DNA of 64,000 bases, from positions 50,956-114,955 of the forward strand of contig JBHLLP010000007.1 in NCBI GenBank assembly GCA_048885525.1, written 5' to 3'. Made by a program: the position numbers and the translations under genes. Positions within the stretch are counted from its first letter, which is position 1; each line of letters begins with the position of its first letter. This document shows positions 11,283-53,270 of the stretch, piece after piece. This DNA is from Candidatus Hermodarchaeota archaeon (lineage in GTDB: Archaea > Asgardarchaeota > Lokiarchaeia > Sigyniarchaeales > SOKP01). Under the pieces are notes generated by a model. That model had not been told where the DNA came from. It saw only the letters and a program-made list of their open reading frames with translations, and did no database searches.

Positions 11283-12282
11283 GTGAAAAAAATGGGAAAA
11301 GTAATAATCCCAAAAAAAGTATATTTATGTTTAGTAGGAGCGTCAGTTAGGTTTGCTAACGTACGTATACCTAAAGATGATTGGTTAGAAGTGAGTGGTA
11401 TATTTACAGGAAGAAATCAAGGAGAAGATGTCATCATCACAGAATGTTACCCCATAATGCATCAAGAATTAGATAAAGATGCAGTTATCGATCAATATAA
11501 ATGGAGTGATGAAGACTATGAAGCTTTATACATTATCGACGAATTAGCCTTCTCAAGAGATCCCCCAGAGTTTGTAGTTGGATGGTGGCACAGTCATCCA
11601 GGCTTTCAGAGCATTGGAGTTCCCACGCTCTAGCTAAAAGGTAATGATGAGCCATATTGATATCCAAACTACTCTATCATACCAGCAAAATAATCCTTTA
11701 GCAATATCACTGGTTTTCAACCCTACAAGACTCATACGTCAGATCGAAGTAGCATATAAAAAAGGAGATCCCGATATACAATTAAAAAATGATCCTGGGT
11801 TTGAGATATTTAGGTTAGATGATATTAATCGAGGACTTGAAGCATCTTATCATCCGGTAGATTATAAAATTGAAGGATATGATAGTATGGAACAATTAGT
11901 CAATTTAACTCAGAAGTTTACAATAGATATTACTAATTTCTTTCCTAAAACTAATGTTCCTAAAATGTATGATAAATTTGTTAATGATAGAATTACTGAA
12001 TTAAATTCAAGATTTCAGGGAACTGAAGAATATCTGACCACTTTAACCATCCGTGGGGAAAAAGAGCGAATTCCAGATGTCTTAAAGAATCAAAGTGAAG
12101 AAATCAGTAAATTTGTAGCAGAAACTTCGATTAAGATAGATCGTATTAAGGAATTTATGGATTATTTAGAATATAAAGAAAGAGACACCATAGTACCTCA
12201 GATTGAGACAATTATACACAAATGGGATGATATGGTTGCGGGAGTAGATAAGAGAATAAAACAGCTAAAGAAGAAATTTTAA
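11283..12282 (+). CDS. MPN+/JAMM metalloprotease interrupted by a 31-nt BHB intron; join(11283..11606,11638..12282), 322 aa (alternative ATG at 11292)
   Basis: Joining GGC TTT to AAG GTA ATG ATG AGC CAT ATT GAT gives GWWHSHPGFKVMMSHID, the same HxH-x7-S-x2-D spacing as the two neighbouring paralogs. Confidence 0.88.
11607..11637 (+). other. 31-nt archaeal BHB-type mRNA intron
   Basis: Central helix GGCU(11601-04)/AGCU(11632-35); 3-nt bulges UU^C (11605-07) and AA^A (11636-38); intron stem AGAGC/GCUCU. Canonical cuts restore the frame and the active-site motif. Confidence 0.85.
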
Positions 12283-12402
12283 ATTTAATAATTTTCATCT
12301 TATTTTTCATTTTGATAAATTTTTATTTGATTACACTTTTTTTTGATTAAATATCAATTATTTAAAATAAAATCAGAGAATTTTTAGAATATAATCATTA
12401 TC

Positions 12403-14607
12403 ATGAAAAAAATTAATTTTCCTTTTACAGCGATTCTTGGCCAAGAAAAAATGAAGATGGGGCTAATTTTAAACGTTATTGACCCTCAAATAGGTGGTAT
12501 CTTATTAACTGGTCAACAAGGTACAGGAAAAAGCACAGCTGTAAGATCTCTCGTGGAATTGATGCCCCAAATTGAAGTAGTTAAAGATTGTGAGTTTTCT
12601 TGTGATCCTCATTCTGATATAGATGATTTATGTCAAAATTGTATAGAAAGAAAGGAAAAAAAGCAAATAAAAACAAAGTTCCGGGATATGTGGCTTGTAA
12701 ATTTGCCTTTAGGAGTCACAGAAGATATGGTTTGTGGAAGTTTATCTATAGATAAGGTATTAACCGAAGGAATAAGAGCTTTACATCCTGGGCTACTTGC
12801 TAAAGCAAACAGAGGTATTCTATATGTAGATGAGATTAATCTACTCCAAGATCATATTGTTGATGTACTTTTAGATTCTGCAGCTTCAGGTGTAAATATA
12901 ATAGAAAGAGAAGGAATATCTATATCACATCCTTCAAGATTCGTGTTAGTTGGTTCAATGAACCCAGAAGAAGGTGATTTAAGACCACAAATTGCTGATC
13001 GTCTTGGTTTAGAGGTAAGAATAAAAGCACCAAGAGATTCAGAATTAAGAGCTGAAATCACAAAAAGAGTAATAGAATTTGATGATCATCCAAAAGAATT
13101 TATTAAAAATTTTGAAGAAAAACAAGAAAAATTAAGAGAACAAATCCTTAATGCTCGTAATATACTAAAGGAAGTTCAAATCCCAAGTTCAGTATATGAA
13201 TTTGTATCTAGAATTGTAAATGAATTAGAGATCTTTTCTCAAAGGGCAGATATAACTTTTATTAGATGCGCCAGAGCTTATGCTGCTTTAAATGGTCGAA
13301 AGATTATTGTAGAGGATGATCTAAATATAGCAATGGACTTAGTATTCGAGCATAGAATTCAATCGCTCCATTATGAAATGACACCAGAAGAAATAAAATC
13401 TAAGATTGCTGAAGTCTACGGAAAAATAAAAGAAGCCTATGAAGACACAAAACTACTTCAACCAAATAGAGAGACAGAAGGCCCATTAAAACATGATAAT
13501 AGTTCTCAAAAAGAATTTAAACGCCAATCTGTCGATCCTGATAAAATAGAGATCCCAGAGTCACAAGAACAGAAATTACCTCCTCCAAAATATCCAGACA
13601 ATAAAAAAAGAAATCCTAAACCAGCAGGAGGTTGGAAAGTAAAGAATATTCCTTTTGATGATGATCTTAGATTTTTTGACGATAAACCTGCTTCATTACC
13701 ATTTATTTATAAGATGGAAAAGAAAATGACATCCATCTTAGATAACATCAGAAAAGACAGGAAGATTTCTGATTATGGTGGAAGAGGGATTGGAAGAAGA
13801 ATAAAAATATCTTCATCCCAAAAAGGGAGATATGTATCTTATCAATCGCCTATACGTGAACAGCCAAAAAGTATTGCTTTAGACGCCACAATTAGGAACT
13901 ATTTAAAAAATATTGTATATAATAAAACTGAAATTGATTTCCCAATACACTTTAATAAATATGATTTAATGGATAAAATCTATGAATATCGAGCACCATT
14001 AGCTCTTTTTTTTGTTTTGGATAGTTCAGCATCAATGTATTATGTAATAAAACAGATGACCGATGTAATATTATCATTACATCGAGAAGGATACAGGAAA
14101 AGAGATAAAATAGCTTTAATTGTTTTTCGTGGTAAAGATGCTGTCGTACTCCAGAAACCTACAGTAAACTTTAAGGCAGCTGTTAGTAAATTGAAAAAAA
14201 TTGAAGGCAAATCTTATACTCCAATGGCAGCAGCATTAAAAAAAGTATCTGAACTAATAAAAGTTGAAAAATTGAAGGATCGAAATATTATTCCTATCGT
14301 ATTTATATGCAGTGATTGTGGAGCAAATATTTCAGTGAAATACCCAGATCTAATAGCGCAAATTGAAACTGATTATACTTTAATTACAAATGAACTAAAG
14401 GAACTGACAAAAAAATTGTCAAAACAAAACATACATATGGTTGTCCTTCAACCAAAAAAATCTTATGCAACACACGCTTTGGGGGTGCATACATATTCGG
14501 CAGATCATATTAAAAAAAATTTTAAAAAATATGCTAATGCTCAAATTTATAAATTTAATAAATATAATCCCAACTCTTTAATACTAGAATTGAAAAAGAT
14601 TCTTTAA
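12403..14607 (+). CDS. Mg/Co-chelatase ChlI/ChlD-like AAA+ ATPase fused to vWA domain
   Basis: FPFTAILGQ, Walker A GQQGTGKST, PGLLAKANRGILYVDEINLL, MNPEEG; vWA MIDAS DSSAS. Confidence 0.9.
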   Translation: MKKINFPFTAILGQEKMKMGLILNVIDPQIGGILLTGQQGTGKSTAVRSLVELMPQIEVVKDCEFSCDPHSDIDDLCQNCIERKEKKQIKTKFRDMWLVNLPLGVTEDMVCGSLSIDKVLTEGIRALHPGLLAKANRGILYVDEINLLQDHIVDVLLDSAASGVNIIEREGISISHPSRFVLVGSMNPEEGDLRPQIADRLGLEVRIKAPRDSELRAEITKRVIEFDDHPKEFIKNFEEKQEKLREQILNARNILKEVQIPSSVYEFVSRIVNELEIFSQRADITFIRCARAYAALNGRKIIVEDDLNIAMDLVFEHRIQSLHYEMTPEEIKSKIAEVYGKIKEAYEDTKLLQPNRETEGPLKHDNSSQKEFKRQSVDPDKIEIPESQEQKLPPPKYPDNKKRNPKPAGGWKVKNIPFDDDLRFFDDKPASLPFIYKMEKKMTSILDNIRKDRKISDYGGRGIGRRIKISSSQKGRYVSYQSPIREQPKSIALDATIRNYLKNIVYNKTEIDFPIHFNKYDLMDKIYEYRAPLALFFVLDSSASMYYVIKQMTDVILSLHREGYRKRDKIALIVFRGKDAVVLQKPTVNFKAAVSKLKKIEGKSYTPMAAALKKVSELIKVEKLKDRNIIPIVFICSDCGANISVKYPDLIAQIETDYTLITNELKELTKKLSKQNIHMVVLQPKKSYATHALGVHTYSADHIKKNFKKYANAQIYKFNKYNPNSLILELKKIL

Positions 14608-14637
14608 TTCTACTTTTCATTTTCATTTTTTAATAAA

Positions 14638-15879
14638 ATGACTAACAAATCAAATTCCATACTTGTTGTTGGATTTAATACAAGACCTTTGGCCTATTCA
14701 CTGAAAAGAGCTGGTTATAATGTATATACTGTAGATTTCTTCGGAGATTTAGATCTCTATCCTTATATCGATGACTATATTATTGTAATGAAAACTTTGA
14801 AAAGTAATTATAACTCTCTGAAATATAAATATAATAAGTTTTTAGCTCAATTTGCAATAGAATTGCATCGTAAACATAGAGATGTAAATTTTTTCTTAAT
14901 AGGTAGCGGCTTAGATGATGCTTATGAAGAGAGAGGGCTCATCTCAGAAGAAATAAAGAGTTTTAATACAATTTTCGTTAATAATAATTTACAAGTAATT
15001 AAAAAATCAAGAGATATTATGGATATTCTTGAACTTCTTAAATCAAATGGTTATAAGTGTCCTAAATCGTATTCCTATGAAAAATTTCGAATGTTAAATT
15101 TAAGACTTGAATTTCCTTTTATTTTAAAGAAAATTAGAAGTGCGGGTGGAATAAATGTTTTTAAAATTGAAGATGAAAAGGATATAACTTTATTGATAAG
15201 TAATTTAGGAAAGAAAAAATTTATTCCGAGAGAATGGATAATTCAAGAATATATTCGCGGTATCCCAATTAGTTGTACAGTGATTTCAGATGGAAATGAG
15301 TGTGAAGTTATTACTATAAATCGTCAAATCATCGGAGAAAATTTTCTTAATGCTCCTAAAGATTTTATATATTGTGGTAATATTGTACCGGCAGGGGTAT
15401 CTATTAATGAAGAAAAAATTATATCTGAAATTTCGTTATTTTTGACAAAAAAATTAGGTCTGAAAGGAATTAATGGGTTTGATTTTGTATTAAAAGATCA
15501 TCATCCTTATTTTATGGAATGTAATCCAAGGATCCCTGGTTCAATTAGAGCTTCAGAATTAGTTTTGAATTTGAATCTATTAGATCTTCATGTAAAATGC
15601 TTTATACCTAATGAATGGAAAAATATTAAGAAATTGATTAAATCTGTGATCCCTAAAAAATTTGCTACAAAACTAATACTTTTTGCTCCAAAAGATGTTG
15701 AGAAAAGCATTTTACAAAAAATAAATAATCTTGAATTTGTTCATGATAAAAGTGAACCAATTAAAAATGTTTTAAGAGGTGAACCTTTATGCTCTGTTTT
15801 ATATGAAGCAGAAAGCATTCATGAATCTTTCAATGGAGCAAAAAGCATTATAAGTCAAATTAATAGAATTATTGGATAA
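14638..15879 (+). CDS. ATP-grasp fold protein (archaeal family)
   Basis: VDFFGDLD N-terminal motif, SAGGINV, IIQEYIRG, GINGFDF...ECNPR. Confidence 0.8.
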   Translation: MTNKSNSILVVGFNTRPLAYSLKRAGYNVYTVDFFGDLDLYPYIDDYIIVMKTLKSNYNSLKYKYNKFLAQFAIELHRKHRDVNFFLIGSGLDDAYEERGLISEEIKSFNTIFVNNNLQVIKKSRDIMDILELLKSNGYKCPKSYSYEKFRMLNLRLEFPFILKKIRSAGGINVFKIEDEKDITLLISNLGKKKFIPREWIIQEYIRGIPISCTVISDGNECEVITINRQIIGENFLNAPKDFIYCGNIVPAGVSINEEKIISEISLFLTKKLGLKGINGFDFVLKDHHPYFMECNPRIPGSIRASELVLNLNLLDLHVKCFIPNEWKNIKKLIKSVIPKKFATKLILFAPKDVEKSILQKINNLEFVHDKSEPIKNVLRGEPLCSVLYEAESIHESFNGAKSIISQINRIIG

Positions 15880-15900
15880 CCAATTTTTCCCTATATCATA

Positions 15901-16638
15901 TTACTGGATTATTGCTTTTATTTTAGCAATGTAAGTACCCAATTTTCTTCCATCTGATTCAGGAACCGCAATTGCTAAAACCCTATTTTCATCTAAATCA
16001 TGTATTATTACAGAACCATTTTCTCCACCAATAATCGAGTATTCCATATGACTTTCTAACAAGACTCCAGATAAATTATATAATGCTGCAACCATTGCTG
16101 AAAGAATTGGTTCAGGCATTGTAGACTGAATCTTAATAGGCAATCCATCTTTTGTAATAATTGCTAAAACTAGAGTATTTGGTATTGCTCTCTTAAGACC
16201 TTTAAAGATTTCTTCTTTAAGAATATCAGATGTTTCAATTATAGCAGATATTTGTAGGCTTAATTTTTGTAGTTTATCTATATAAGAATCTAATCCTTCG
16301 AGTTCTGCTAACTCTCGATTCAAATATGTAATCATGGTAATATTTTCTGTTAAAATTGAAAGAACAATTTTTTCCTTACCAAAAATAAGGTTATAGGAAA
16401 CTTCTTGATTAAGAGAATCACGCAACATCTTAGATGACAGAAAAACTAGGCTACTATTTGCTGCTGTAACTTCCCCTGTAGTCATTTTAATCTCTTTTTT
16501 GAAGATATTTGCAATTTTAGTACCCTCAGGAGTCCCCACATTAATACCTAATATTGCAGAAGAGGATTCTAGCTCTTTTTCTATTCGTTCACACACATCT
16601 GTTTTTAATTCTTCAAGTATTTTTTCTTGTTTTTCCAT
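15901..16638 (-). CDS. Tandem Roadblock/LC7 (MglB/LAMTOR-like) domain protein
   Basis: Two repeats: GINVGTPEGTKIA...VTAANSS and LAIITKDGLPI...LSAMVAAL...IIGGENGSVII. Confidence 0.8.
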   Translation of the reverse strand: MEKQEKILEELKTDVCERIEKELESSSAILGINVGTPEGTKIANIFKKEIKMTTGEVTAANSSLVFLSSKMLRDSLNQEVSYNLIFGKEKIVLSILTENITMITYLNRELAELEGLDSYIDKLQKLSLQISAIIETSDILKEEIFKGLKRAIPNTLVLAIITKDGLPIKIQSTMPEPILSAMVAALYNLSGVLLESHMEYSIIGGENGSVIIHDLDENRVLAIAVPESDGRKLGTYIAKIKAIIQ

Positions 16639-16843
16639 GGAAGAATATTGGATATCTGCAAATAAAAAGATATTCTAATAATTTAGTAATAATTTATATA
16701 AAAAACTTAAAGCAATATCATTGAAATGAGATGGTTTTAACGTTAAAGAACATTTTATTAGTAAACATGATATAAAACAGTATTAGTAATAATAAATTTT
16801 TAAATTATAGTCTTTATAGTAAAAATTATAAATAAAAAATATT

Positions 16844-17656
16844 GTGATTTTGTTAATGGATTATGAAATAAAAAAAAAATTAGAATCAAAAGATAACCTT
16901 ATCAAATTAAAAGATGAACAAGTCAAAACACTGGAGAATTCCCTACAATTAAAAGATGAACAAATTAAGACTCTTGAGAAGACATTAAAAACAAAGGATG
17001 AAGAAACTAAAACCTTAGAAAAAACTATAGCTCTAAAGGATGAAGAAATTCAAAAGTTAAATTCTTCCAAAATTGATTTAAATATCTTAAAAGAAAAAGA
17101 TGATTTAATCACTCAACTTCAGAAAGAGATTGAAATTTTAAATGATGAATTAGCTAAAGCAGATGAAGATTTAGAAAGTTTGGAATTACAGAATGAGAAA
17201 TTGAGAAATGTTCAAACTAGTTCTAAAGATGAAAAAATCTTGGATTTTACAAATAGACAGATACAGAAATTAAAGATTCTTGAAAAAATGAGAGAAATAT
17301 TAAATAGCGCTATCTCAAATGTAACTATAGTTGTTCCTAGCATTGAAGATTTGCAAGAGCTTTATTTATATGAATTAAGATCATCTGTTAGCATGAAGAT
17401 TGCATGTTCAATTAATCCAGCTATTACTGAGCATTCTGAATTGCTAGAAGAGTTCGAAAGTTTAGATAATATAAGTTTACGTAATTATGAACGAGCAGAC
17501 AGATATGTGCTTACTAAGGATGGAGAAGAACTTTTGTTTGCTGTGATTGGTAATTCTGAAAATAATAATTTAGTAATTCATACAAAAGATCCAAAACATT
17601 TCAAATTATTTAGTTCTTTAGCTACTGAGGGTTGGATTCAGAGCAGAAAAATCTGA
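16844..17656 (+). CDS. Coiled-coil protein with C-terminal TrmB/PLD-like effector domain
   Basis: N-terminal 14-aa repeats; C-terminal SNVTIVVP...NISLRNY...KDGEELLFA pattern. Confidence 0.7.
   Translation: MILLMDYEIKKKLESKDNLIKLKDEQVKTLENSLQLKDEQIKTLEKTLKTKDEETKTLEKTIALKDEEIQKLNSSKIDLNILKEKDDLITQLQKEIEILNDELAKADEDLESLELQNEKLRNVQTSSKDEKILDFTNRQIQKLKILEKMREILNSAISNVTIVVPSIEDLQELYLYELRSSVSMKIACSINPAITEHSELLEEFESLDNISLRNYERADRYVLTKDGEELLFAVIGNSENNNLVIHTKDPKHFKLFSSLATEGWIQSRKI
16907..17059 (+). repeat. Intragenic 42-nt (14-aa) tandem repeat, about 3.6 copies
   Basis: LKDEQVKTLENSLQ / LKDEQIKTLEKTLK / TKDEETKTLEKTIA / LKDEEIQKL. Confidence 0.8.
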
Positions 17657-17659
17657 AAT

Positions 17660-18373
17660 TTAGAATATTGGACATTTATTCTTTACACATTTATCATTTA
17701 TTTTTGAAAAACTACACTTTTTAAAATTATAGTCTAATTCCACTTTGAACTTTTCTTTTAAGAATTTTAAAGTTTCGATAATTGATAACCGTACTGATCT
17801 TTTACAACAATGTTCTAAATTATCAGCAATTTTATTTAATGATCTTGATGTTATTTGATTTGCTAATGTCCTTGGATAATCTGTAGAGGGTGTTGCCCCT
17901 GTAAAAATACTTATTGTGATACCAGAACCTATTCCAGCACCACATGAACCGTAAAAACCGCACCAACCTCCTGGAATTTTAGATGCCCTCCTTATCGATT
18001 CTTTAATATCAAATAGAGTTATCTCACTTCCATTAGGCTTTTTTATGTTATTATTTTTAAGAGCAGTCAAAATCACAGCTGGTGTCAATATATGATGTTC
18101 AGGGCCATATTTTTTAAAATTTGGATGCTTCATTATTAGATCTGCTAATTCAAAAGGATCTTTAATTTTAGTTTCTTCATATACTCTTTCAATTATATCA
18201 AGTGGTCCTTTTGAATGGCATCTATCACAAATATAGTGTCCATCTTCACAATAAATATTAGAATGAAATATATTTCCACAATATTCACAAATAAGATCTC
18301 GATAATCTTGGGGCTTTGTTGCATAAATCAGCGAATTGCCACAAATTTCACATTTATCGCTTTTTTTTGTCAC
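17660..18373 (-). CDS. Cys-rich protein, DUF5714-like, with N-terminal zinc fingers
   Basis: CEICG..CEYCG..CEDGHYICDRCH; GPEHH, PGGWCGFYGSCGAG, CCKRS. Confidence 0.8.
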   Translation of the reverse strand: MTKKSDKCEICGNSLIYATKPQDYRDLICEYCGNIFHSNIYCEDGHYICDRCHSKGPLDIIERVYEETKIKDPFELADLIMKHPNFKKYGPEHHILTPAVILTALKNNNIKKPNGSEITLFDIKESIRRASKIPGGWCGFYGSCGAGIGSGITISIFTGATPSTDYPRTLANQITSRSLNKIADNLEHCCKRSVRLSIIETLKFLKEKFKVELDYNFKKCSFSKINDKCVKNKCPIF

Positions 18374-18397
18374 TTTTTATCATTAAATTAAAGTTTA

Positions 18398-19273
18398 TTA
18401 TATTTCTACATAAGTTCTTTTTCTATTTTGAAAATGAGCTAATTGATTATAACCAACTTCCTTCAATAGTTTTAATATTTTATTAAACTTATATGCCAAG
18501 TCATTAGGGTGATGCGCATCTGATCCTAAGAGAATTGGGATATCTAATTCATACATTTTATCAATAATTTCAAAACTAGGATATTGTTCTTTTACTTCTT
18601 TCCTTAGACCACCAGTATTAATTTCAATTGTTAAATCTGCTTTCTTTGCTAACTCAAGCGTTTTAATCGCTGTATCCATAACTAATTCTTTGTTTTTAGC
18701 TCTTTTATTATACTTCTTTGGCAAATCGAAATGACATATTATATCAAAATTAAATTTATCTGAATTTATCATATGTTGTAGTTTATAATAATATTCTAAA
18801 TAGATATTATCGATACTATCATATTCTTTATACATGTTTAAGAATCTTTTATCATCTAGAGCAAATAATCTTGATTTTCCATGCAATATATGAACTGATC
18901 CTAACATATAATCTAATTTATCCACTCTACTAAAAAATTCTTTTTCCAAATTTATTTCATGGCTCTTAAAATAATCAATTTCAAAAGCAGTCCTAATTTG
19001 AATCTCGCTTTTATATTTTTCTTTTAATGCTTTAATAGATGAGAGGTATAAATCAACCTCATTTAATCTCATTGCATATTCTTGATAAGGGATTTCTTTT
19101 ATTGAACTAAAACTCTTCTCAAGATACTCATATGGGAAATGATCGCTAATTCCAATAAGGTCTAAATTTAACTTAATAGCTTTTTTAACGTAATCTTCAA
19201 TAGTGCCCTTTGCATGGCGACATAGTATATTGTGAGTATGCCAATCTTCTAAAAGGCTTTTTCTTTCTTTCAA
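18398..19273 (-). CDS. PHP-family histidinol-phosphatase (HisJ/HisK-like)
   Basis: DWHTH..CRHA, ISDHFP, GSVH, HFDLPK, EINTGG, GSDAHHP. Confidence 0.85.
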   Translation of the reverse strand: MKERKSLLEDWHTHNILCRHAKGTIEDYVKKAIKLNLDLIGISDHFPYEYLEKSFSSIKEIPYQEYAMRLNEVDLYLSSIKALKEKYKSEIQIRTAFEIDYFKSHEINLEKEFFSRVDKLDYMLGSVHILHGKSRLFALDDKRFLNMYKEYDSIDNIYLEYYYKLQHMINSDKFNFDIICHFDLPKKYNKRAKNKELVMDTAIKTLELAKKADLTIEINTGGLRKEVKEQYPSFEIIDKMYELDIPILLGSDAHHPNDLAYKFNKILKLLKEVGYNQLAHFQNRKRTYVEI

Positions 19274-19368
19274 ATATCTAAGTATCTAATATATTATATT
19301 CTGTTATCTACTATTAATACTAGAAGTTAGTTAAAATTTGTGATAAATTAATATAAGCTGATAAGTTC

Positions 19369-20178
19369 TTGGAATTTAAAAATAAGCAATTTGATGGGTC
19401 ATATGAAGTTGCTACGATTGACATTTATAATAATAATGAGTTATTTAAGGGAATACTATATTATCCTCCCGTTTCTTTTCCAAAACCTTATCCAGTAATA
19501 ATCTATTTTCATGGTTTTCCACAATTATTTACATTACAAGAACTTGTTAAGAGATATCAATATTTATTGGATTATGGCTATGCATTCATAACATTTAATT
19601 TTAGGGGATATAGATACAGTGAGGGTAAAGTTTCGATAAAATCTCAAGTTTCAGATGCTCTTAAAATTACTGAGTTTATTGAAACTATGGCTTCTGATAA
19701 TGTATTTAATCCTACTAATATTAATATAATTGCTCATGATTTTGGTGCCTATATCGCCTTAATTCTTAGTTCAAAAATAGGAATTGTCAATAAATTAATA
19801 TTAATTAGCCCAATTTTAGATTTAAAGAAGCATATCTATAGTAATGATTTCCCAAAAACATTGAGTTATATTAATAGGTTCCTTCCAGGAAATATTAATG
19901 GAATTCAAAATATAAATGATTTTATTGAGTATACAAAAGCAGAGTTAGACAATGATGAATATCAAATTGAGAGATTTATTAAAAATTTGAAGTATAAAAA
20001 ATTGAAGATTCTAATAGGAGAAAATGATAAACTAACTCCTATTTCCGAGGTAAAGAAGATGATTAATCAAATAGAAATAGGATCTGAACTTTTCATAATT
20101 GAAAATATGGATCATGATTGTGTGAATGAAAATAAATTGGAAATCTTAAACCAAGAAATATTAGATTTTTTCAAATAA
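19369..20178 (+). CDS. Alpha/beta-hydrolase fold protein
   Basis: YFHGFP oxyanion motif, FNFRGY.SEG, elbow AHDFG, GENDKLTP, MDH. Confidence 0.8.
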   Translation: MEFKNKQFDGSYEVATIDIYNNNELFKGILYYPPVSFPKPYPVIIYFHGFPQLFTLQELVKRYQYLLDYGYAFITFNFRGYRYSEGKVSIKSQVSDALKITEFIETMASDNVFNPTNINIIAHDFGAYIALILSSKIGIVNKLILISPILDLKKHIYSNDFPKTLSYINRFLPGNINGIQNINDFIEYTKAELDNDEYQIERFIKNLKYKKLKILIGENDKLTPISEVKKMINQIEIGSELFIIENMDHDCVNENKLEILNQEILDFFK

Positions 20179-20211
20179 ATTACTTTTTTCATCTTAATTA
20201 AATATTAATGG

Positions 20212-20862
20212 CTAATCAATATACTTCTTAATATATTGCTCAACCTTATCTGCTGGTTGATAAATCCCGAAATGACCCTCACAGAGTATATCTGCCTTTA
20301 AATCTAAAAGCTTTTTCAGGGATTTTTGGTAATCCTCGTAATCACTTACACCTGGAATAATTGGACCATGTAAATCCTGACCAAATAAGATTTTTGTATT
20401 ATCTTCAGTTTCTACTAGGATTGAGATAGAACCTGGAGTATGACCTGGTGTGTGAATACATTGAAATTCATAATTTCCGAATTTTAAGATTTCTATGTCC
20501 CTTATCAATCTCCTTGTGAGTTTAATTGGTTTATAGTTTACTCCATACCAAATAGCTGCTGTTTCTTTATCATGACCTCTTTCTTCTATTGCGTTTGCAT
20601 CTAATTCATGAGCATAGTAATTTATTATTTTATTAAGCTGTTTAAGATCATAAGCAGCACCAATGTGATCTATATGAAAATGAGTTATAATACAATGTTT
20701 TATATCCATTGGATTCAAATTAACTTTAGTGATTTTTTTTATCATCTCAAGGCTCATTCCGCAATCAATTAAAACAAGACCTTCTTCACTTTGAGTTTGT
20801 ATTAAATAAACAGAACACCCAGAATCTCCTACATGATATATATCCTTAAAAATTTCTTTCAA
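20212..20862 (-). CDS. Metallo-beta-lactamase-fold hydrolase
   Basis: THFHIDHIG, HTPGHTPG, GQD, EGH. Confidence 0.88.
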   Translation of the reverse strand: MKEIFKDIYHVGDSGCSVYLIQTQSEEGLVLIDCGMSLEMIKKITKVNLNPMDIKHCIITHFHIDHIGAAYDLKQLNKIINYYAHELDANAIEERGHDKETAAIWYGVNYKPIKLTRRLIRDIEILKFGNYEFQCIHTPGHTPGSISILVETEDNTKILFGQDLHGPIIPGVSDYEDYQKSLKKLLDLKADILCEGHFGIYQPADKVEQYIKKYID

Positions 20863-22434: not shown

Positions 22435-22437
22435 GAG

Positions 22438-44003: not shown

Positions 44004-46412
44004 ATGATTCGTGGTTTAAAATTGAAAATTGGCCTATTTTTATGTGATTGTGGTAAGAACATTAGTGGTGTAATTGATAATAACACGTTAGTCAATCATT
44101 TTGAGAAATATCCTGATTTACATGTATTTAGAGACCAGTATTTATGTTCTGAATTAGGTTTAAATAAAATTATTGATGAGATCAAAGAAAAAAAAGTTGA
44201 TCGTGTGGTTATTGCTGCTTGTTCATTTAAATTACATGGTTTACTTTTTCGTAAAACTATTGAAAAAGCAGGTATTAATCGATTTTTAATATCATTTGCT
44301 AACATACGAGAACAGAATTCATGGGTTCATTATGATGAACCAAAAAAGGCAACAAGAAAGGCAATAGATCAAATAAATATGGCAATAGAACGTGTTAAAC
44401 TTTTAGAGCCATTAGAAGTTCAATATTCGGATATCTCACCATCTGTTTTAATCATTGGAGGTGGTATTGCTGGAATCAAAGCTGCTCTTATAATTGCTGA
44501 TACAGGGAATAAAGTATATTTAGTCGAAAAAGAGCCTACAATTGGGGGTCATATGGCGTTATTTGATAAGACATTCCCCACTTTGGATTGCTCAATTTGT
44601 ATACTAGGTCCATTAATGACGGAGGTAAAAGATCATCCAAATATTGAATTATTAACTTACTCTACAATTGAGAGTGTTGACGGTTATATTGGAAATTTTG
44701 ATGTGAAAATCAAAAAAAAACCGCGATTTATTAAAGAAGATGATTGTGTAGGATGTTTTGATATTTGTCGAGAAGTTTGTCCAATAGATGTAGAAGAAAC
44801 ATTCTTTCCCAGAAAAGCGATAGATGTTCCTTATCCTCAAGCAATACCCTTATTTCCAAATATCTTAGAAGAAACCTGTATTGGTTGTAAAGCATGTGCT
44901 CAAGCTTGCGACAGAGATGCTATTGATTTTGACCAAAAAGCCGAAATTGTCAATATAACAGTAGGATCGATTATAGTAGCAACAGGTTTGAAACCATTTG
45001 ATCCCTCAGTATTGGGAGAATATAGTTATGAGAAATATCCCGATGTAATCACAACCATGCAAATGGAAAGGTTACTAAATAACGATGGGCCAACTCATGG
45101 GAATGTAGTAAAACCTTCTAATGGGCAAATTCCTAAAAAAGTTTCTTTTATATTATGTGTAGGTTCTCGGAATAAAAAAATCCATCATGATTATTGTAGT
45201 CAAGTATGTTGTAATGTAGCAATCAAACAAGCTGTACTATTAAAAAAAGAAAATCCAGAAATAAAAATTAATATTTATTATACTGATATTAGAGCAATGG
45301 GCAAAAATTGTGAGGAATTCTACAATCGAGCACGAGAAACTTTTGGAGTACGCTTCATAAAAAGCAATATATCAGCTATTTTAAAAAGCGATACATCAGA
45401 CGATTTAATAATCCGTGGTGAAGATATTATTGAAGGTGCTATTTTTGAAAATAAAACAGATTTAGTAGTGTTAGCAGTGGGTATAGAGCCCGCAGAAGGA
45501 ACTGATGAATTAACTAAAAAATTAAATATTTCCCAAGATCCTTATGGCTTTTTATTAGAGAAACACTTAAAAGTTAAACCCTCTGAAACACTTGTTAGTG
45601 GAATTTTCATAGCAGGAGCGATCCAAGGGCCTAAAGACATACCTAATAGTATTGCTCAAGCAGAAAGCGCAGCTTCTAAATCAATTGCACTAATTACACG
45701 TGGAAAAGTAGAGTTAGATCCGCACGTTGTCTACTTTAATGAGGATAAATGTGATTTGTGTAGGTTATGTGAAAATATATGCGAATTTAATGCGTTAAGA
45801 ATTGAAGATAAAAAATTAAAAATTACTCAAGCTAATTGTTCCGGATGTGGTGCATGTGTGGCAATGTGTCCCTATGATGCACTTTATATCCCAGGTTTCA
45901 GAAGAGAACAAATCTCAGCACAGTTAAAATCTGTACTCACTGAAAAAAAAGAATTTCCATTAATCATTTCCTTTTTATGTAACTGGTGTTCTTATGTTGG
46001 AGCAGACTTAGCTGGAACAAGCAAAATAAATTATCCAACAAATACTAGAACAATTCATGTTATGTGTACAGCAATGCTTAACCCATCATTAATTTTCGAG
46101 AGCTTCTTTTACGGTGCTGATGGTGTATTGATTGCTGGTTGTCATCCCCAAGATTGTCATTATGAAACTGGCTTCCTTAAAGCAAAAAGTCGTTATGAAA
46201 GTATTAAAGAAATGTTAGCCGAAGCAAATATAAATGAAAATCGGATTAAAATTGTAAGTATCTCAGCGGGAGAAGGGGAGAAATTTGCTCAAGTAATAAA
46301 GGAATTCAGAGACGAGTTAAAAAAAATAGGTCCAATCCAGCCTGGTGAATATCTAAAACCTCCCACAACAATAAAACAACCAGAAGATAAAGCCAAGCTA
46401 AATGAAATTTAA
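44004..46412 (+). CDS. hdrA: HdrA (FAD, Fe-S) fused to C-terminal MvhD
   Basis: ANIREQ, GGGIAG, KTFPTLDCSIC, CVGSR..YCSQVCC, GPKDIP; MvhD FLCNWCSY...GCHPQDCHY. Confidence 0.93.
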   Translation: MIRGLKLKIGLFLCDCGKNISGVIDNNTLVNHFEKYPDLHVFRDQYLCSELGLNKIIDEIKEKKVDRVVIAACSFKLHGLLFRKTIEKAGINRFLISFANIREQNSWVHYDEPKKATRKAIDQINMAIERVKLLEPLEVQYSDISPSVLIIGGGIAGIKAALIIADTGNKVYLVEKEPTIGGHMALFDKTFPTLDCSICILGPLMTEVKDHPNIELLTYSTIESVDGYIGNFDVKIKKKPRFIKEDDCVGCFDICREVCPIDVEETFFPRKAIDVPYPQAIPLFPNILEETCIGCKACAQACDRDAIDFDQKAEIVNITVGSIIVATGLKPFDPSVLGEYSYEKYPDVITTMQMERLLNNDGPTHGNVVKPSNGQIPKKVSFILCVGSRNKKIHHDYCSQVCCNVAIKQAVLLKKENPEIKINIYYTDIRAMGKNCEEFYNRARETFGVRFIKSNISAILKSDTSDDLIIRGEDIIEGAIFENKTDLVVLAVGIEPAEGTDELTKKLNISQDPYGFLLEKHLKVKPSETLVSGIFIAGAIQGPKDIPNSIAQAESAASKSIALITRGKVELDPHVVYFNEDKCDLCRLCENICEFNALRIEDKKLKITQANCSGCGACVAMCPYDALYIPGFRREQISAQLKSVLTEKKEFPLIISFLCNWCSYVGADLAGTSKINYPTNTRTIHVMCTAMLNPSLIFESFFYGADGVLIAGCHPQDCHYETGFLKAKSRYESIKEMLAEANINENRIKIVSISAGEGEKFAQVIKEFRDELKKIGPIQPGEYLKPPTTIKQPEDKAKLNEI

Positions 46413-46575
46413 AAAGGTAATTCAAACTCACTAACAACAAATATGAATTTCCTTAAGAATAAATGCTAATTTTTTATTACTAGCTCTCTAATAAACCTTA
46501 TTAAGAGATTTTTTTTATTAATTATATTATTGATAGCGATTTTTAATTATAAAAATATAATTTAACGGGTTAATA

Positions 46576-47862
46576 ATGAGAATTAGAGCGATTACTCTTG
46601 GTCAAATTATACCTTTTCTCTATAAGAATGAAACAATACTCTCATTTTTACAAGATAGGTTGGATATTTTCTCCTCTTTTGCTAATGAACTTAAGAATGC
46701 GCTAAAAAAAATCGAGATAGAGGTTGATACTAAAAGATTTTGTTCTCAACCACTTTTTAGTTATGATAATAAATTATTTTATGAAAAAAACTTAAGAGAA
46801 ACATTAGTAAACATAAATGATCAACTAGGATTCTTACAAGATATGTTTAAAGATTACGATTTCGACTATTTTGCTTGCTGTATGATGATGGCAGATCAAA
46901 TTGAAGAATTGGGTATTTTTGAAAAACTATTATTAAATGAAGTTCCTCAATTTCTTAAAAATCACAGAAACTTTTTCACATCATTACCAGCTGCATCGAC
47001 TGAAAAAGGAATTAATATTGCAGCTTTAAAGTCAGGTGCAAAAATAATTAAGGAATTATCTGAACCAGATCCTTTTAACAACTTACAATTCTGTGTATCT
47101 GCAAATGTTGGTCCAAACAATCCTTTCTTTCCTGCTGCTTACCACTTTTCAGAAAAACCAGGCTTTTCATTAGCTTTAGAAATGGCAGATGAAGTAATAA
47201 ATGCCATTGAAGAAACAAGCACATTAAAAGATGCACAGCTTAATTTATTAGCAAAATTTAACGAGATATATGATAATTTGACAAAAATTGCTGAAAAAGT
47301 TAGTAGAAACTTCGATATTGAATTTAAAGGAATAGATCTTACTCCCGCTCCTTATCCTATGATAGATAAGAGCATAGGGACTGCTATTGAAAAATTGGGA
47401 GTTGAATATTTTGGAGCTAACGGAACATTGACCTGCATTGCTTTAATTAAGAATTCAATCCCTATTAATAAAAAGAAAATTATTGGTTTTTCTGGTTTTA
47501 TGCAACCCGTGTTAGAAGATTTTATTTTATCAAAAAGACTATCTGAATATAAGTTCAATTTAGATTCTCTCCTATTGTATTCTACTATGTGTGGAGCTGG
47601 TCTTGATGTAGTTCCTCTTCCTGGTGATATTACACAAAAAGAATTATTTTACATTTTACTCGATATTTGTACCATATCTGTGAATTTAAACAAACCTTTA
47701 ACTTGTAGACTTATGCCCATTCCTGATAAAAGTCCAGGGGATGATATTGAGTTTGAGTTTGAATATTTCGCTCCTACGAAAATTATAGATTTTAGAAGAA
47801 TTATTGATGAGAATAAAAATGATTTGTTCAGTCGAAATGAGAAAAATTTAAAATTTCTTTAA
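46576..47862 (+). CDS. DUF711 (UPF0210) family protein
   Basis: PFFPAAYH, GIDLTPAP, GFSGFMQPVLED, STMCGAGLDVVPLPGD, KPLTCRLMP. Confidence 0.85.
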   Translation: MRIRAITLGQIIPFLYKNETILSFLQDRLDIFSSFANELKNALKKIEIEVDTKRFCSQPLFSYDNKLFYEKNLRETLVNINDQLGFLQDMFKDYDFDYFACCMMMADQIEELGIFEKLLLNEVPQFLKNHRNFFTSLPAASTEKGINIAALKSGAKIIKELSEPDPFNNLQFCVSANVGPNNPFFPAAYHFSEKPGFSLALEMADEVINAIEETSTLKDAQLNLLAKFNEIYDNLTKIAEKVSRNFDIEFKGIDLTPAPYPMIDKSIGTAIEKLGVEYFGANGTLTCIALIKNSIPINKKKIIGFSGFMQPVLEDFILSKRLSEYKFNLDSLLLYSTMCGAGLDVVPLPGDITQKELFYILLDICTISVNLNKPLTCRLMPIPDKSPGDDIEFEFEYFAPTKIIDFRRIIDENKNDLFSRNEKNLKFL

Positions 47863-47896
47863 TAAAATTTTTTAAAGAGGTTATCTAATTATTTTT

Positions 47897-48388
47897 TTGA
47901 AAACACTCAAAAATTATAATTGTATTATTTCTATGAAAGAGAAAATAAAGAACAAACCATTGCGGTTCTTCAATGAAGCTGTTGAATATATTGATAAATT
48001 CGATAACCAAGAGATCTTTATGGAAGAAAGTAGAGTTCCGTTAGATGTTAGAAATTATAATTCAAACTTTTTAAGAGATGAAATGATAAATGAATTAAAT
48101 AATCTAAAAGAACTCATTCGAAATAACCCTGATTTAAAAATCGAGAAATTATCAAAAGAAGAAAGAGATACTTTTTATAAGTTTATCAAATGGGCAAAAA
48201 TCTGCCCAATTTGTGGAAATCAAAATCATTTTTTCAACTTAAAACGATTATTTTTTGATGAAGAGAAGAAATCACTTGTAAAAGAAATGATAAGATTGAT
48301 GACATTGGATAACAGAAAGCTAAGAGCTTTTAATCTACTATTAGGAGTTCCTTGCTGTAATTGCTATAAGATCTTCTTCGAAAAATAA
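47897..48388 (+). CDS. Hypothetical protein with CPICG and CCNC motifs
   Basis: 163-aa ORF with a split zinc-binding site. Confidence 0.7.
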   Translation: MKTLKNYNCIISMKEKIKNKPLRFFNEAVEYIDKFDNQEIFMEESRVPLDVRNYNSNFLRDEMINELNNLKELIRNNPDLKIEKLSKEERDTFYKFIKWAKICPICGNQNHFFNLKRLFFDEEKKSLVKEMIRLMTLDNRKLRAFNLLLGVPCCNCYKIFFEK

Positions 48389-48406
48389 ATTAGAACATAC
48401 TATTTT

Positions 48407-48745
48407 CTATTTTAAATATTCAATTACTTTTCCACTTTGAGTGATTTCATAATAAATTTCTTTTGTTTTTTCATCAGTTATTGGTTGAATACAAAAAGCT
48501 TTGATTAAAAAATCCATGTTATAGTTGAATACATATTCATCATCAATTATATTATTCACAGCAAGTTTTTTTATTAGATCACTTTTAGAAACCCGTTTTG
48601 ATTCGTTCACTATATTCAGAATTTCACGGCGAATTGGATGGTTCACAGCTTTAAGATATAGATCATGTAAATACCTAGTACCTTCAACTGTTTTGCCAAA
48701 ATCTTCCATTGTTTTATAATTCTTGAAATCAAACTCATTAGGCAT
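48407..48745 (-). CDS. ArsR-like winged-helix protein
   Basis: AVNHPIRREIL...YYEITQSG. Confidence 0.75.
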   Translation of the reverse strand: MPNEFDFKNYKTMEDFGKTVEGTRYLHDLYLKAVNHPIRREILNIVNESKRVSKSDLIKKLAVNNIIDDEYVFNYNMDFLIKAFCIQPITDEKTKEIYYEITQSGKVIEYLK

Positions 48746-48884
48746 ATTTGAGTAAAAGAATAAAGAAAGAAAAATCTTTGGTTTGTAAAGATAGACTCTA
48801 AATCTATTGAAATATAAAGGTACTTTAAATAATTGAATTTAAAGTCAATTATTGAAGATATTACTATATAAGAAGTGAAAAAGT

Positions 48885-49169
48885 TTGGAAAAAATTAAAG
48901 TATCTCACAGCCCTAAAATGGATTCAATTAGTAAAAAAGAGAAAGTTGGGAGTAAAATTGATAGTTTATGGGAGGAAAATTCAGTATATAATAAAAAAAC
49001 AAAGTATGAATCTAAAAAACTAATAATAAAGCTCGAGACAAATGGTACGGAAAAAAGAAAGATTATGTTAAAAATGGAAAGTGGAAGTCCAAACGTTAAT
49101 TCTAATAATTATACTCTCATTTCTGAGATATTAAAAGAATTTTTTAATAATAATAGTAATTTTGATTAA
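48885..49169 (+). CDS. Hypothetical protein
   Basis: 94-aa ORF, no recognisable motif. Confidence 0.45.
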   Translation: MEKIKVSHSPKMDSISKKEKVGSKIDSLWEENSVYNKKTKYESKKLIIKLETNGTEKRKIMLKMESGSPNVNSNNYTLISEILKEFFNNNSNFD

Positions 49170-49303
49170 ATTAATAAATTTATTTCATTAAGTTCTCTCT
49201 GGTTACTTATATTTTTTTGAAGAAATTAAAAGTAAAATATTTTATTTTAGGACTCCTATTTCTTCATTAATTTTAATTTAATACTAAACTTGATGTATAA
49301 AAA

Positions 49304-50365
49304 ATGAATTTTGAAGAAATTAAAAGTATATTAGGTTCTGATGCCGATAATTTGTTAAATCATGTATGTACCGGGATTCCTAAAGAAAATGTTCATCAAC
49401 CTGGACCAGATTTTATAGAACGAGTATTTGAACATTCAGATAGAAATAATATTGTATTAAATAATATGGAACGATTATTTACCCAAATTGGTAGATTATC
49501 AGGTACAGGATATCTCTCAGTATTACCCGTTGATCAGGGAATTGAACATTCTGCTTCAGCTAGTTTTGCTCTTAATCCTTCATATTTCGATCCTGAAAAC
49601 ATTATTAAACTTGCGATAAACGGAGGTTGTAGTGCTGTTGCTTCTACGCTTGGCGTTTTAGGTTCTGTTGCAAGAAGATATGCTCATAAAATTCCATTTA
49701 TAGTAAAGATCAATCATAATGAATTGCTTACAAAACCCCCAATCTCAGATCAAACCCTATTCGCAAATGTAGAACAAGCATTTGATATGGGTGCAGCTGC
49801 AGTAGGAGCAACAATATATTTTGGATCTTATGAATCAAGACGCCAAATTCAAGAGATTAGTGAATCATTTAGATATGCTCATGAGTTAGGATTAGTTTGT
49901 GTCCTTTGGTGTTATTTAAGAAATCAAGAAGAATTTATCAAAGATGGAAAAGATTATCACACAGCAAATGATTTAGAAAGCCAAGCAAATTATTTAGGAG
50001 TTACTATAGAAGCAGACATTATAAAACAAAAATTATCTACTCTTAATCGTGGTTTTCTTGATTTAAACTTTGGTAAAACAGATAAGCTTGTTTATGAAAA
50101 ATTAGCAACCGATCACCCAATTGAATGGAATCGTTACCAAGTAGCAAATTGCTATATGGGAAGAATAGGTTTAATTAATTCTGGTGGAGAAGCTGGAGGT
50201 ACCGATCTTCAAGATGCAGTCACTGCTGCTGTCATTAATAAACGCTCAGGAGGTATGGGTTTAATTTTGGGACGCAAAGCATTTAAAAAAACTACTCCTG
50301 AAGGGATTAAAATTCTCAATGCCGTACAAGATGTTTATTTATGTCAAGAAATTACTATTGCTTAA
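49304..50365 (+). CDS. fbaB: Class I fructose-bisphosphate aldolase (FbaB/DhnA type)
   Basis: [45 protein letters not shown]. Confidence 0.93.
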
Positions 50366-50471
50366 TAATTCTCTAAATACTCTTTTTTTTAATTTATTTT
50401 AAATTAAATTAAAATTAAAAATAAAAACATCATTATTCATTATAAAGAATTAATTTTTTCTTAAGATTACT

Positions 50472-51092
50472 ATGGGAAAAGAAAGAGATTTTAGACTAGA
50501 TCCAAATTATAATCCTTATAGAGTCAAAAAGACGACTCCTGCCTCCAAAGAAACAGTCATTGATTTTGATACTAGGAGAATTTGTCCTGCTTGTGGATTA
50601 GACATTAAAATAAGCCACAATTTTTGTAAACGTTGCGGTGTAGATTTAAGTGCAATTGAGCCAATAGGAAATGATGAAATTTCTAAACAATTAGCAATAA
50701 CAGCCATCACTGATCCTGATCCAGAAGTACGAAAAGAAGCAGTTGATACTTTAGGAGATTTTGGAGATAATAAAGTATTAGGAGTTCTTACATATGTCTT
50801 ATTAAACGATCCAGATGAAAATGTAAGAAAAGAAGCTGCAGATGAACTTGGAGATCTCCACCATCCCTACAGTTTGGAGGTATTTACTAAAGCATTAAAA
50901 GATGAGAGTGCATTAGTTAGAAAGGAAGCAATAGAGGGTTTAAAGAAAATTAAAAAGAAGATCAAGACAGAGAAATTAGATGAAGGAAAACCAGAGAGTA
51001 GGTCAGCTGAAGAAGAAAAACCTAAACCAGGAGAAAAGACGGAGGAAAGTGCAGAAGAAAAGACAGAAGAAAGTAATAATAATCTAATCTAA
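50472..51092 (+). CDS. Zinc-ribbon + HEAT-repeat protein
   Basis: CPACG..FCKRCG; repeats DPDPEVRKEAVDTLG / DPDENVRKEAADELG. Confidence 0.85.
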   Translation: MGKERDFRLDPNYNPYRVKKTTPASKETVIDFDTRRICPACGLDIKISHNFCKRCGVDLSAIEPIGNDEISKQLAITAITDPDPEVRKEAVDTLGDFGDNKVLGVLTYVLLNDPDENVRKEAADELGDLHHPYSLEVFTKALKDESALVRKEAIEGLKKIKKKIKTEKLDEGKPESRSAEEEKPKPGEKTEESAEEKTEESNNNLI

Positions 51093-51187
51093 AAAAATTT
51101 TCTATTTTTTTTTTATTTAAGTAAATCCTTATATATCAGAATGAAAAATGTAAGAAAATTTAAAATTATAATTAAGAATGGAAGAGT

Positions 51188-52321
51188 TTAATCGTCTTTA
51201 CTTGGAATTTTTGGTAATTGTTGACGACTACTTGTTTTTTTTTCCTCGGATTTCTCTAAAATTTCTATTATATCAGCTTTTCTTGCATTAGTAGGTAGAT
51301 CTATTTTTTTTTCTTCAGCATAAGATTTTAAATCTTTCACAGTCATAGACTTAAAATCAACCTTTTCAGTGGATATTGGTGTTGCTGAGGATTTCATCAT
51401 TGATGCTGGTTTGGATGGCATTGGAGATAATCCAGAAGGAGATCTTGTTTTTGGAACACTCCTTAAGCTTGCTTCCTTTTCTAATACTTCAAGAGCCTCA
51501 ACAATTCCTTCTTTTTCGTCAAAATACACTCTTAAAACGTGATTATTTAATTCTATCATTTCTTTTGGAACTTTTTTAACTGGTTTCCACTCAGTTTCTT
51601 CAATCTCTTTTCCGAAAACATTAGCAATTTTCGATACTGCCGCATAGAGAGTATGACCTAAGATGAGATTAGATCTTTTATAATCTTTGGATAGCTCAGT
51701 TTTGAGAATTTTCTCTTTTATTTTTTGTTTTTGTTCCTCTGATAATCCTATTGCTTTCCTAACTGTAATTGGTTTAACCATTGCTGATTTTGGATATTCA
51801 GTCCTTGGTTTTGGGGTAGCAGTAGCAAAAGATGAAACCACAACTTCATTGCTTGTGTCTTGTAGTGCAGGTGAGTAGTATTCCTCTTCAGTTTGCATTT
51901 TAGTTGATTTTGGAGCAACATCTGTAATAGTTGCTTGCGCCATTCTTTCTCTTTCAATGTTTCGAACATATCTCATATCTGGCAATCGTTCAGTTACCTC
52001 CATCGATTCTAATCTGAATGCATTTAAGAATTCTGATGGTTCATCTCCAGCATCTACAGATATTATCTTACAGCGGTGATATCTAGAATCATTCATTAGC
52101 TCTTCTTGAAGATTTGAAGCTACTCTTGAACTAATAAATCTTTTTCGAACAGGAGATTTTGGTCCTTTCCAAATGAAGATCCTTCTTAAATCTTCTCTTA
52201 TTATCACTAAAACTTGTTCAGGATTTAAATTTTCCTGAAGCTCTTCTTCAGTGATGTTTAATTTTATTCTTTCTCCAGAATCATCTAATTCATATACCAT
52301 GAATGTCTCATACTCAGTCAT
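51188..52321 (-). CDS. Gelsolin-domain protein with C-terminal HeH (Rho-N/SAP/LEM-like) motif
   Basis: Gelsolin: VLVII..RIFIWKGPKSP..RF...SVDAGDEPSEFL. HeH: DFKSMTVKDLKSYAEEKKIDLPTNARKADIIEIL. Confidence 0.82.
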   Translation of the reverse strand: MTEYETFMVYELDDSGERIKLNITEEELQENLNPEQVLVIIREDLRRIFIWKGPKSPVRKRFISSRVASNLQEELMNDSRYHRCKIISVDAGDEPSEFLNAFRLESMEVTERLPDMRYVRNIERERMAQATITDVAPKSTKMQTEEEYYSPALQDTSNEVVVSSFATATPKPRTEYPKSAMVKPITVRKAIGLSEEQKQKIKEKILKTELSKDYKRSNLILGHTLYAAVSKIANVFGKEIEETEWKPVKKVPKEMIELNNHVLRVYFDEKEGIVEALEVLEKEASLRSVPKTRSPSGLSPMPSKPASMMKSSATPISTEKVDFKSMTVKDLKSYAEEKKIDLPTNARKADIIEILEKSEEKKTSSRQQLPKIPSKDD

Positions 52322-52535
52322 TTTCTTTCAGTGTAACAAATGATCCGTATTATTTTAATTTCTATTATGGTAATTAATACTTTTTAATTGAATATTTGAA
52401 ATTTCTATTCAAACTTATTTCTTTTAAAAAAAATATAAATTAAATTATTTTAAATCTTATTTTTTAAAAAACCAAGAGTATATTCTTTTCAGTTCGCTAT
52501 TTAATTAAAATTGGAAAAAAAAATAAAAGATTTCA

Positions 52536-53270
52536 TTAGTAGTCGTGAAGAACATTATCTATAGAAAGGACAAATCCAACTAAAATTCTACGATCAGTCT
52601 CATTATCTAGTATTCTCAAAGCGTATGTATCTTTAAAATCTAAAAGACCTCCAAGAAACACATCTCTCCATCGGTCTGCTTTTTCAATTTCTGCTACAAC
52701 ATTACCTGTTGTGACATCATATACCTTAAACGAAAAGCCCATAAACTTACCTTGGGCACGAAACCACTGATTTCCTTGAGGGTCTTCAAGATAGAATACA
52801 GGTCTAAAAAATGACAGAATTTTCTTCTTAATACGGGCTATTAAATTCCCTTGAGGATCTTTTAAATCTTGTGCTCCACGAGCAGATACGATTTTAGCAT
52901 GTATTGTAGCTGCGATTGAACCATCTACTTCTTGTAATTCAACCCTACGTCGAATGCTTAAAATTACTCTTTTCATTTTACCTATGATTTGATTATTCTC
53001 GTCTAATATATCACCAGAACCCCATTCGAGTTTAAATCCGAGGAGGATTTAAAAATCCCAGTATTTCTCTTTGAGAATATAATAGTTCCGGTTAATATCA
53101 AACAACCCACCGGGGCGACTAGATGGAGGGGCACTAGAAGGTGCAAGCCTTGTCGGTGTAGGGGTTGTTCCGACTTGTCTAACACTTTCTGGTATTGGCG
53201 AACCACATTTTTCACAGAAATTTTGAGTCAAGTCTTTTATTTCAGCTCCACAATCTTTGCAATATGGCAA
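52536..53270 (-). CDS. Zinc-ribbon + LURP-one/scramblase-like (Tubby C-terminal fold) protein interrupted by a 30-nt BHB intron; join complement(52536..53024,53055..53270), 234 aa
   Basis: TTG start with GGTGA SD; YCKDCG..FCEKCG; Pro-rich linker; spliced YILKEKYWD|WGSGDILDENNQIIGKMKR continues into ORF 52536..52976 (DTYAL...VLSID). Confidence 0.85.
53025..53054 (-). other. 30-nt archaeal BHB-type mRNA intron (contains in-frame UAA)
   Basis: Central helix UGGG(53060-57)/CUCG(53030-27); bulges AU^U (53056-54) and AA^U (53026-24); perfect 9-bp intron stem UUUAAAUCC/GGAUUUAAA with 5-nt loop. Confidence 0.85.

Follow-up and report, generated by a model that had tools for sequence, protein, structure and literature searches.

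The window analysed here is a 64,000-nt stretch from Candidatus Hermodarchaeota archaeon, an Asgard host of the Lokiarchaeia type, positions 50956-114955 of contig C7 in a 3.58-Mb assembly (G000; 29% GC, 99% complete), and it holds two protein-coding genes that are each interrupted by an insert of about 30 nt with the architecture of an archaeal bulge-helix-bulge (BHB) intron. Positions given without a contig are window positions. The first gene, on the plus strand, encodes a JAMM/MPN+ protease. Its exon 1 (11292-11606) runs for 105 codons from ATG 11292, is 92% identical to residues 3-104 of an intact 318-aa homologue, P0003, and matches Pfam JAB (E 1e-9) in searches that were run on the exons of both genes separately. 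A 31-nt BHB-type intron follows in phase 0 (11607-11637), carrying an in-frame TAG and a frameshift and ending in AA, and exon 2 (11638-12282) adds 214 codons and a stop. The spliced open reading frame (ORF) has 319 codons from ATG 11292; full-length homologues have 314-321 aa. The insert falls inside the HxH-x7-S-x2-D metal-binding motif, with HxH in exon 1 and S-x2-D, along with a helical tail, in exon 2.

The second gene, on the minus strand, encodes a Zn-ribbon protein with a LURP-one (LOR)/scramblase-like domain. Exon 1 (53055-53270) has 72 codons from a TTG start at 53270, matches Pfam Zn_Ribbon_1 and is 79% identical to residues 1-72 of the intact 234-aa homologue P0127. The intron (53025-53054), again BHB-type and phase 0, is 30 nt long, contains an in-frame TAA and has AA at its 3′ end. 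Exon 2 (52536-53024), with 162 codons and a stop, matches Pfam LOR (E 3e-10), and the spliced ORF comes to 234 codons from TTG 53270.

Both inserts are built alike: the last exon bases pair with the intron end in a 4-bp helix, which lies between two 3-nt bulges next to an intron hairpin. In insert 1 (motif at 11598-11641, plus strand), the central helix GGCU 11601-04 / AGCU 11632-35 is bordered by bulges UUC 11605-07 and AAA 11636-38, with an intron helix at 11608-12/11627-31 and a weak exon–exon helix in which an A.A mismatch adjoins the bulge. In insert 2 (53023-53061, minus strand), the central helix is UGGG 53060-57 / CUCG 53030-27, the bulges are AUU and AAU, the intron helix has 9 bp and the exon–exon helix is again weak, a single C-G followed by A.G. 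Predicted cuts placed behind the second bulge base, as an earlier note on this DNA had proposed, give in-frame products that match intron-less orthologues exactly. That note had also described a common architecture with unrelated sequence, and this is borne out (alignment z = -1.4 against shuffles). Its designation of the motifs as BHB holds for the central helix and bulges and fails for the strict hBHBh′ form with both flanking helices, since the exon helix has a mismatch at the bulge or one pair from it. The predicted pairing places the window motifs in the relaxed HBh′ type, and some relatives in the hBH type, both recognised relaxed BHB forms (PMC6379350). As isolated motifs of 34-35 nt, both fold as predicted, insert 1 at -11.1 kcal/mol (z -1.7) and insert 2 at -8.8 kcal/mol (z -2.2).

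The survey of orthologues for which the earlier note had called was run against same-genus genomes, further genomes and metagenome contigs. Among 23 same-genus JAMM orthologues, 18 are intact, with an exact join at the predicted point, and 5 carry an insert of 29-32 nt there. The central helix is fully paired (4/4) in all 11 distinct JAMM copies while both strands vary (GGCU/AGCU, GGUU/AACU, GACU/AGUU). Wherever the bulge-side intron helix has been lost, the first exon pair is retained, and wherever the exon helix has the A.A mismatch, the intron helix is retained, a trade-off between flanking helices expected for hBH and HBh′ relaxed motifs (PMC6379350). The Gly codon preceding the junction (11601-11603) is GGC in 10/16 intron-bearing and 1/18 intron-less loci, duplicates and kin included, a preference that would be consistent with a constraint of the central helix on exon sequence. 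The 22 same-genus LOR orthologues comprise 13 intact genes, 6 with an insert at the identical site and 3 with a different insert four codons upstream. Across 12 LOR sequences, 98.8% of cells are paired and 16 are changed on both sides, a result equalled in 0/500 shuffles, and pairing in slid registers, used as a control, reaches at most 68.5%. Altogether, 30/30 distinct homologous copies in other assemblies have a 4/4 central helix, with compensatory changes; a regular-expression match in L035 is spurious and is left out of the 30.

The second-site LOR intron (L035:1978-2038, minus strand) resembles duplicated downstream exon, with a direct repeat of about 13 nt, possibly a hint that this intron arose by local duplication. 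Some intron 5′ halves, those of LOR site 2 and JAMM, resemble the downstream exon, and neither the pattern nor this suggested origin is general. The region 7320-14607 around the intron-bearing JAMM gene also encodes more MPN paralogues, a Zn-ribbon protein and a chelatase-like AAA+/vWA protein. In the region 51188-54180, the LOR gene and a CDP-alcohol phosphatidyltransferase gene are divergently oriented, and a HeH-domain gene lies downstream of the LOR gene.

These comparisons bear on a rival account of the inserts, in which they mark pseudogenes, genes split in two or assembly artefacts. The genomes are metagenome assemblies, and JAMM exon 2 has ATG codons just past the junction and appears in databases as a 211-aa protein in its own right; of the 120 top-ranking JAMM homologues, about 18 are such exon-2 fragments, of 210-212 aa and without a Pfam domain, which agrees with the earlier expectation that annotation would misread intron-bearing genes. 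On the other hand, homologous yet diverged inserts recur in about 30 independent assemblies, branch lengths indicate that exons of intron-bearing JAMM genes are conserved like intact orthologues, and the breaks fall within the JAMM metal-binding motif and, elsewhere in the genome, the aIF2gamma P-loop, with no second copy. This account is scarcely credible. On the JAMM tree, the patchy distribution of the intron calls for a minimum of 5-7 gains or losses. No full-length protein among the listed JAMM, LOR and cdhA homologues has exactly the sequence that splicing would give in an intron-bearing genome, and the near matches P0122-P0124 are ordinary assembly contigs of other strains.

Alignments to relatives cover 85% of the window and reveal no further BHB insert that breaks a frame there. 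Across the genome, a descriptor scan with an ORF-restoration filter gave counts like those of decoys with cut sites shifted by 1-2 nt (1583 versus 1594-1641; 55 versus 32-49; 50 versus 38-54), with a small excess confined to 26-36 nt. One high-scoring candidate, in a proteasome alpha gene (C4:54934-54964), was rejected because its ‘intron’ reads as conserved coding sequence. Used alone in a 29%-GC genome, such a scan is swamped by chance and nearly uninformative, so motif-free alignment to relatives was used: 2.4 Mb sampled from two relatives was aligned to the genome and covered 1.53 Mb (43%) of it. Insertion lengths peak at 30-31 nt. Across this genome and the two relatives, there are 14 cases in which an insertion of 20-45 nt breaks an ORF and its removal restores it; 13 of these insertions are 28-31 nt long and have a BHB fold, versus 16/152 other indels (Fisher p 1e-10), several of the 16 being tRNA, 5S or short-gene introns themselves. 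The enrichment of BHB motifs at gene breaks anticipated by the earlier note thus appears at breaks defined by homology, and only there; by descriptor scan it does not.

Nine of the 13 census introns belong to this genome, in the genes for JAMM, LOR, aIF2gamma, AMP phosphorylase, cdhA, selD, a response regulator and two proteins without a family name. Further introns with motif and restored frame interrupt mevalonate kinase, purA and an MFS-like gene, and a second intron lies in a gene near rtcB, for a verified total of 13 introns in 12 genes. With 11 introns inside the covered 43%, two of them preselected, we estimate from these alignments roughly 20-25 mRNA introns per genome, so two in 64 kb would be a mild cluster and the ‘many’ foreseen by the earlier note would mean tens, not hundreds. 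The two relatives carry introns of their own, in uL11, EF-2, histone and other genes.

Five of the interrupted genes, those for aIF2gamma, AMP phosphorylase, mevalonate kinase, purA and cdhA, exist only once in the genome and are broken in conserved motifs, and since single-copy core genes are interrupted in this way, their messages almost certainly have to be spliced. The aIF2gamma intron (G000 C19:33097-33126, minus strand; L197, L257-L286) splits the P-loop of a 519-aa protein, about 110 aa of which form an extension at the N-terminus, and occurs in 5/27 genus members, one of them with a different intron sequence. Among genus members (L308, L312, L318-L325), cdhA has introns at about codons 43, 69-70, 76 and 170, at least four sites, and some genomes have two introns with a 20-nt exon between them. 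The selD intron (G000 C16:19010-19040, plus strand; L196) starts one base past an in-frame TGA (selenocysteine) codon; the insertion was first called through a spurious opposite-strand ORF, later resolved. A second, intact selD paralogue lies 1.5 kb downstream. Examples from the relatives are a 28-nt intron in uL11 (G006 C1:1129379-1129406) and a 30-nt intron in EF-2 (G023 C1:1382056-1382085), both genes named from motifs and not by family search, and a 32-nt BHB insert after codon 4-5 of an archaeal histone gene (G006 C1, about 1223002-1223033, plus strand; L147) whose orthologue in G000 is intact.

Like-sized inserts are also found outside coding sequence. A 30-nt BHB insert (G000 C19:36937-36966, plus strand; L206, L214-L229) interrupts the sole 5S rRNA-like gene, which scores 21.9 bits in Rfam, below cut-off. 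Five relatives have an insert at this site, with a covarying central helix, and about 17 lack it. A tRNA gene contains another insert of 30 nt. In G023, 30-nt BHB inserts occupy two conserved GC-rich non-coding stretches (C1:419668-419697, L093; C1:371995-372024, L091). An Rfam search of these two hosts gave no identification; they may encode structured RNAs, for example RNase P RNA or the RNA of the signal recognition particle (SRP).

Taken over 18 sites in the window and other genes, a list partly defined by ORF breakage, the central helix is paired 4/4 in 13 and 3/4 in 5. Introns lie in phases 0, 1 and 2 at 8, 8 and 2 sites, so that 10/18 split a codon, and they end in AA, AT, AG and AC at 10, 5, 2 and 1 sites. 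The earlier note had pointed to phase 0, an AA end and an in-frame stop: each is found in both window introns, and as rules of the system phase 0 (8/18) and AA (10/18) do not hold. No sequence family is shared among the introns, or between mRNA and tRNA/5S introns, beyond effects of composition and hairpin (mean z 0.2). Introns whose length is a multiple of three contain an in-frame stop in 9/9 cases versus 5.5 expected (P ~0.006, with some ascertainment bias), and 16/18 introns are located in the 5′ half of their gene (11/13 for motif-free finds, p 0.02, without a matched control).

A short hairpin insert containing a stop has the shape of known translational bypass elements, at which the ribosome would hop over the hairpin and leave the RNA uncut. 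Yet matched take-off and landing codons are absent in 12/18 sites, both window inserts included, a codon is split at 10/18, the exon–intron helix covaries and the same design recurs in untranslated tRNA and 5S genes, all of which makes bypassing or recoding very improbable.

The enzymes sought on the earlier note's suggestion are encoded in the genome. The catalytic EndA subunit (G000 C2:50308-50904) has the Tyr/His/Lys triad, and its best structural relative is the Aeropyrum pernix EndA alpha subunit, with which the loop and a conserved Lys align; a second, non-catalytic EndA subunit (C9:105770-106387) is encoded that does not have the His. A loop of the crenarchaeal type confers broad specificity (PMC6379350), and relaxed motifs, like the cbf5 intron, are cut by EndA of such a type (PMC6379350, PMC2738675); we infer that the host EndA is probably of this broad-specificity type. 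In the region G000 C56:13617-16433 (L199), the genes for RtcB and archease are adjacent, and a gene with two BHB introns (C56 16241-16270, 16403-16433) shares the strand of rtcB, from which it is about 0.3 kb away.

Removal by another nuclease, or excision of the insert from the DNA, instead of cleavage by EndA, is highly unlikely. Boundaries derived from homology fall at the second base of each 3-nt bulge, which is the cut geometry of EndA, and 30 nt is below the size of group I and II ribozymes. For excision from DNA, the metagenome collection yielded no DNA allele equal to the spliced JAMM junction, a weak test.

The inserts are very probably genuine archaeal endonuclease-type mRNA introns, a lineage-wide population of about 30 nt removed by EndA and RtcB, and judged by sequence they answer to every test for a relaxed BHB intron. 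In the transcript, the last exon-1 bases would pair with the intron 3′ end as the 4-bp helix between two 3-nt bulges, and one flanking helix, usually the intron hairpin and sometimes the exon helix, would complete the relaxed motif. An (alpha-beta)2 EndA would cut each bulge behind its second base, and the exons would be joined by RtcB together with archease, which restores the frame. Introns of this kind, some 20-25 per genome and also present in tRNA and 5S rRNA genes, appear to have been repeatedly gained and lost, and we propose that they are tolerated because splicing is constitutive.

Several points weigh against this interpretation. With longer flanks, the minimum-energy fold is not always the BHB and competing folds appear, so the case rests on comparative evidence and not on folding energy. 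The five 3/4 central helices include those of aIF2gamma, cdhA and mevalonate kinase. The relatives are non-independent samples, and because the copies are kin, the covariation and enrichment statistics are overstated; assembly error is excluded by the copies nonetheless. The inserts, exact boundaries, covariation, enzymes and interrupted single-copy core genes are direct observations; EndA cleavage, RtcB ligation and a constitutive, near-neutral status are what we infer from them.

The earlier note had suggested a regulatory role comparable to XBP1/HAC1 splicing, that is, a regulated programme in which removal is switched by condition and gates a set of genes, and we consider this unlikely. 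The same low standing applies to its broader form, in which EndA/RtcB splicing of dozens of mRNAs in Lokiarchaeia would place translation-factor, purine, isoprenoid and CO-dehydrogenase genes under condition-dependent control through enzyme availability, with the two-intron gene beside rtcB as feedback, and would be an antecedent of regulated, ligase-dependent splicing in eukaryotes. Every verified intron does block the full-length protein, stops fill all nine introns of length 3n, introns concentrate in the first gene half, the two-intron gene is close to rtcB and archease, and the cbf5 intron has been proposed as a negative regulator (PMC2738675). The stops and the 5′ bias are, however, also explained by selection against read-through products and by decay or loss of 3′ introns, on a site list partly chosen by ORF breakage. 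A target intron conserved across the lineage, as in XBP1/HAC1, is not what was found: presence is patchy among close relatives (JAMM 5/23, LOR 6+3/22, aIF2gamma 5/27). The host genes have no function in common, and some are housekeeping genes; BHB inserts of similar size also occur in tRNA and 5S genes, where splicing is needed at all times. A PF06479 profile search for the IRE1 RNase domain gave no match in any genome, control genomes included, and is thus uninformative. We found no evidence supporting a regulatory role; patchy presence and same-size introns in tRNA and 5S genes favour constitutive splicing, and the intron population looks, from its distribution, like one that is constitutively spliced and nearly neutral.

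XBP1/HAC1 splicing resembles the system described here in having a short intron that shifts or blocks the frame and in joining by a tRNA ligase (RtcB in animals), but there stress-activated IRE1 cuts two stem-loops in one conserved target, whereas here the geometry is BHB and the targets are many, unrelated and patchy. A closer parallel is the cbf5 pre-mRNA intron of Desulfurococcales and Sulfolobales, reportedly described by Watanabe in 2002 and Yoshinari in 2006, and treated by Yokobori in 2009 (PMC2738675). Like the present introns, it is a short coding-sequence intron at a catalytic motif, with relaxed BHB boundaries, a hetero-oligomeric EndA and lineage-specific loss, and it was missed by annotation. 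It differs in being confined to one gene and one site, as opposed to at least 12 genes per genome, three phases and several sites per gene across the genus, with multi-intron genes, a uniform 28-34 nt and an Asgard host; conversely, its splicing was demonstrated by cDNA, whereas splicing here is deduced from sequence. The cbf5 case is the one confirmed archaeal coding-sequence intron, those in other genes being only predicted (PMC2738675). The HVO_1309 intron of Haloferax volcanii is likewise an EndA-cut BHB intron in an mRNA, but at 46 nt it is a single case in the 5′ untranslated leader and leaves the frame unbroken (PMC7714728). Non-canonical tRNA introns, found in Asgard archaea (bioRxiv 10.64898/2026.10.13.758758) and in Thermoproteales, also have BHB or relaxed motifs, repeated independent gains and an (alpha-beta)2 EndA, and were missed by annotators; those of the Asgard preprint have a median of 22-23 nt, with Jordiarchaeia and Atabeyarchaeia as focal families, and the preprint deals with tRNA genes only, with no mention of mRNA or cbf5 (bioRxiv 10.64898/2026.10.13.758758). 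No report of BHB introns in Asgard mRNAs was found in the searched literature, whose coverage excludes subscription journals. The mechanism, which works like cbf5 splicing, is known; the extent across Asgard mRNAs is new in that literature.

Archaeal mRNA splicing has so far been treated as a one-gene curiosity, that of cbf5. Should the inserts described here be spliced, routine splicing of about 20 protein genes per genome, essential ones included, would take place in a lineage near the eukaryotic ancestor, with protein enzymes that eukaryotes retain (TSEN, RtcB). The introns of that lineage have features usually discussed only for eukaryotic ones, including multi-intron genes, repeated gain and loss, a 5′ bias and stops in frame-preserving introns. 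Asgard gene catalogues would then miss or split core genes such as those for aIF2gamma, EF-2, uL11, histone, purA and cdhA, and metabolic reconstructions and marker phylogenies would be affected.

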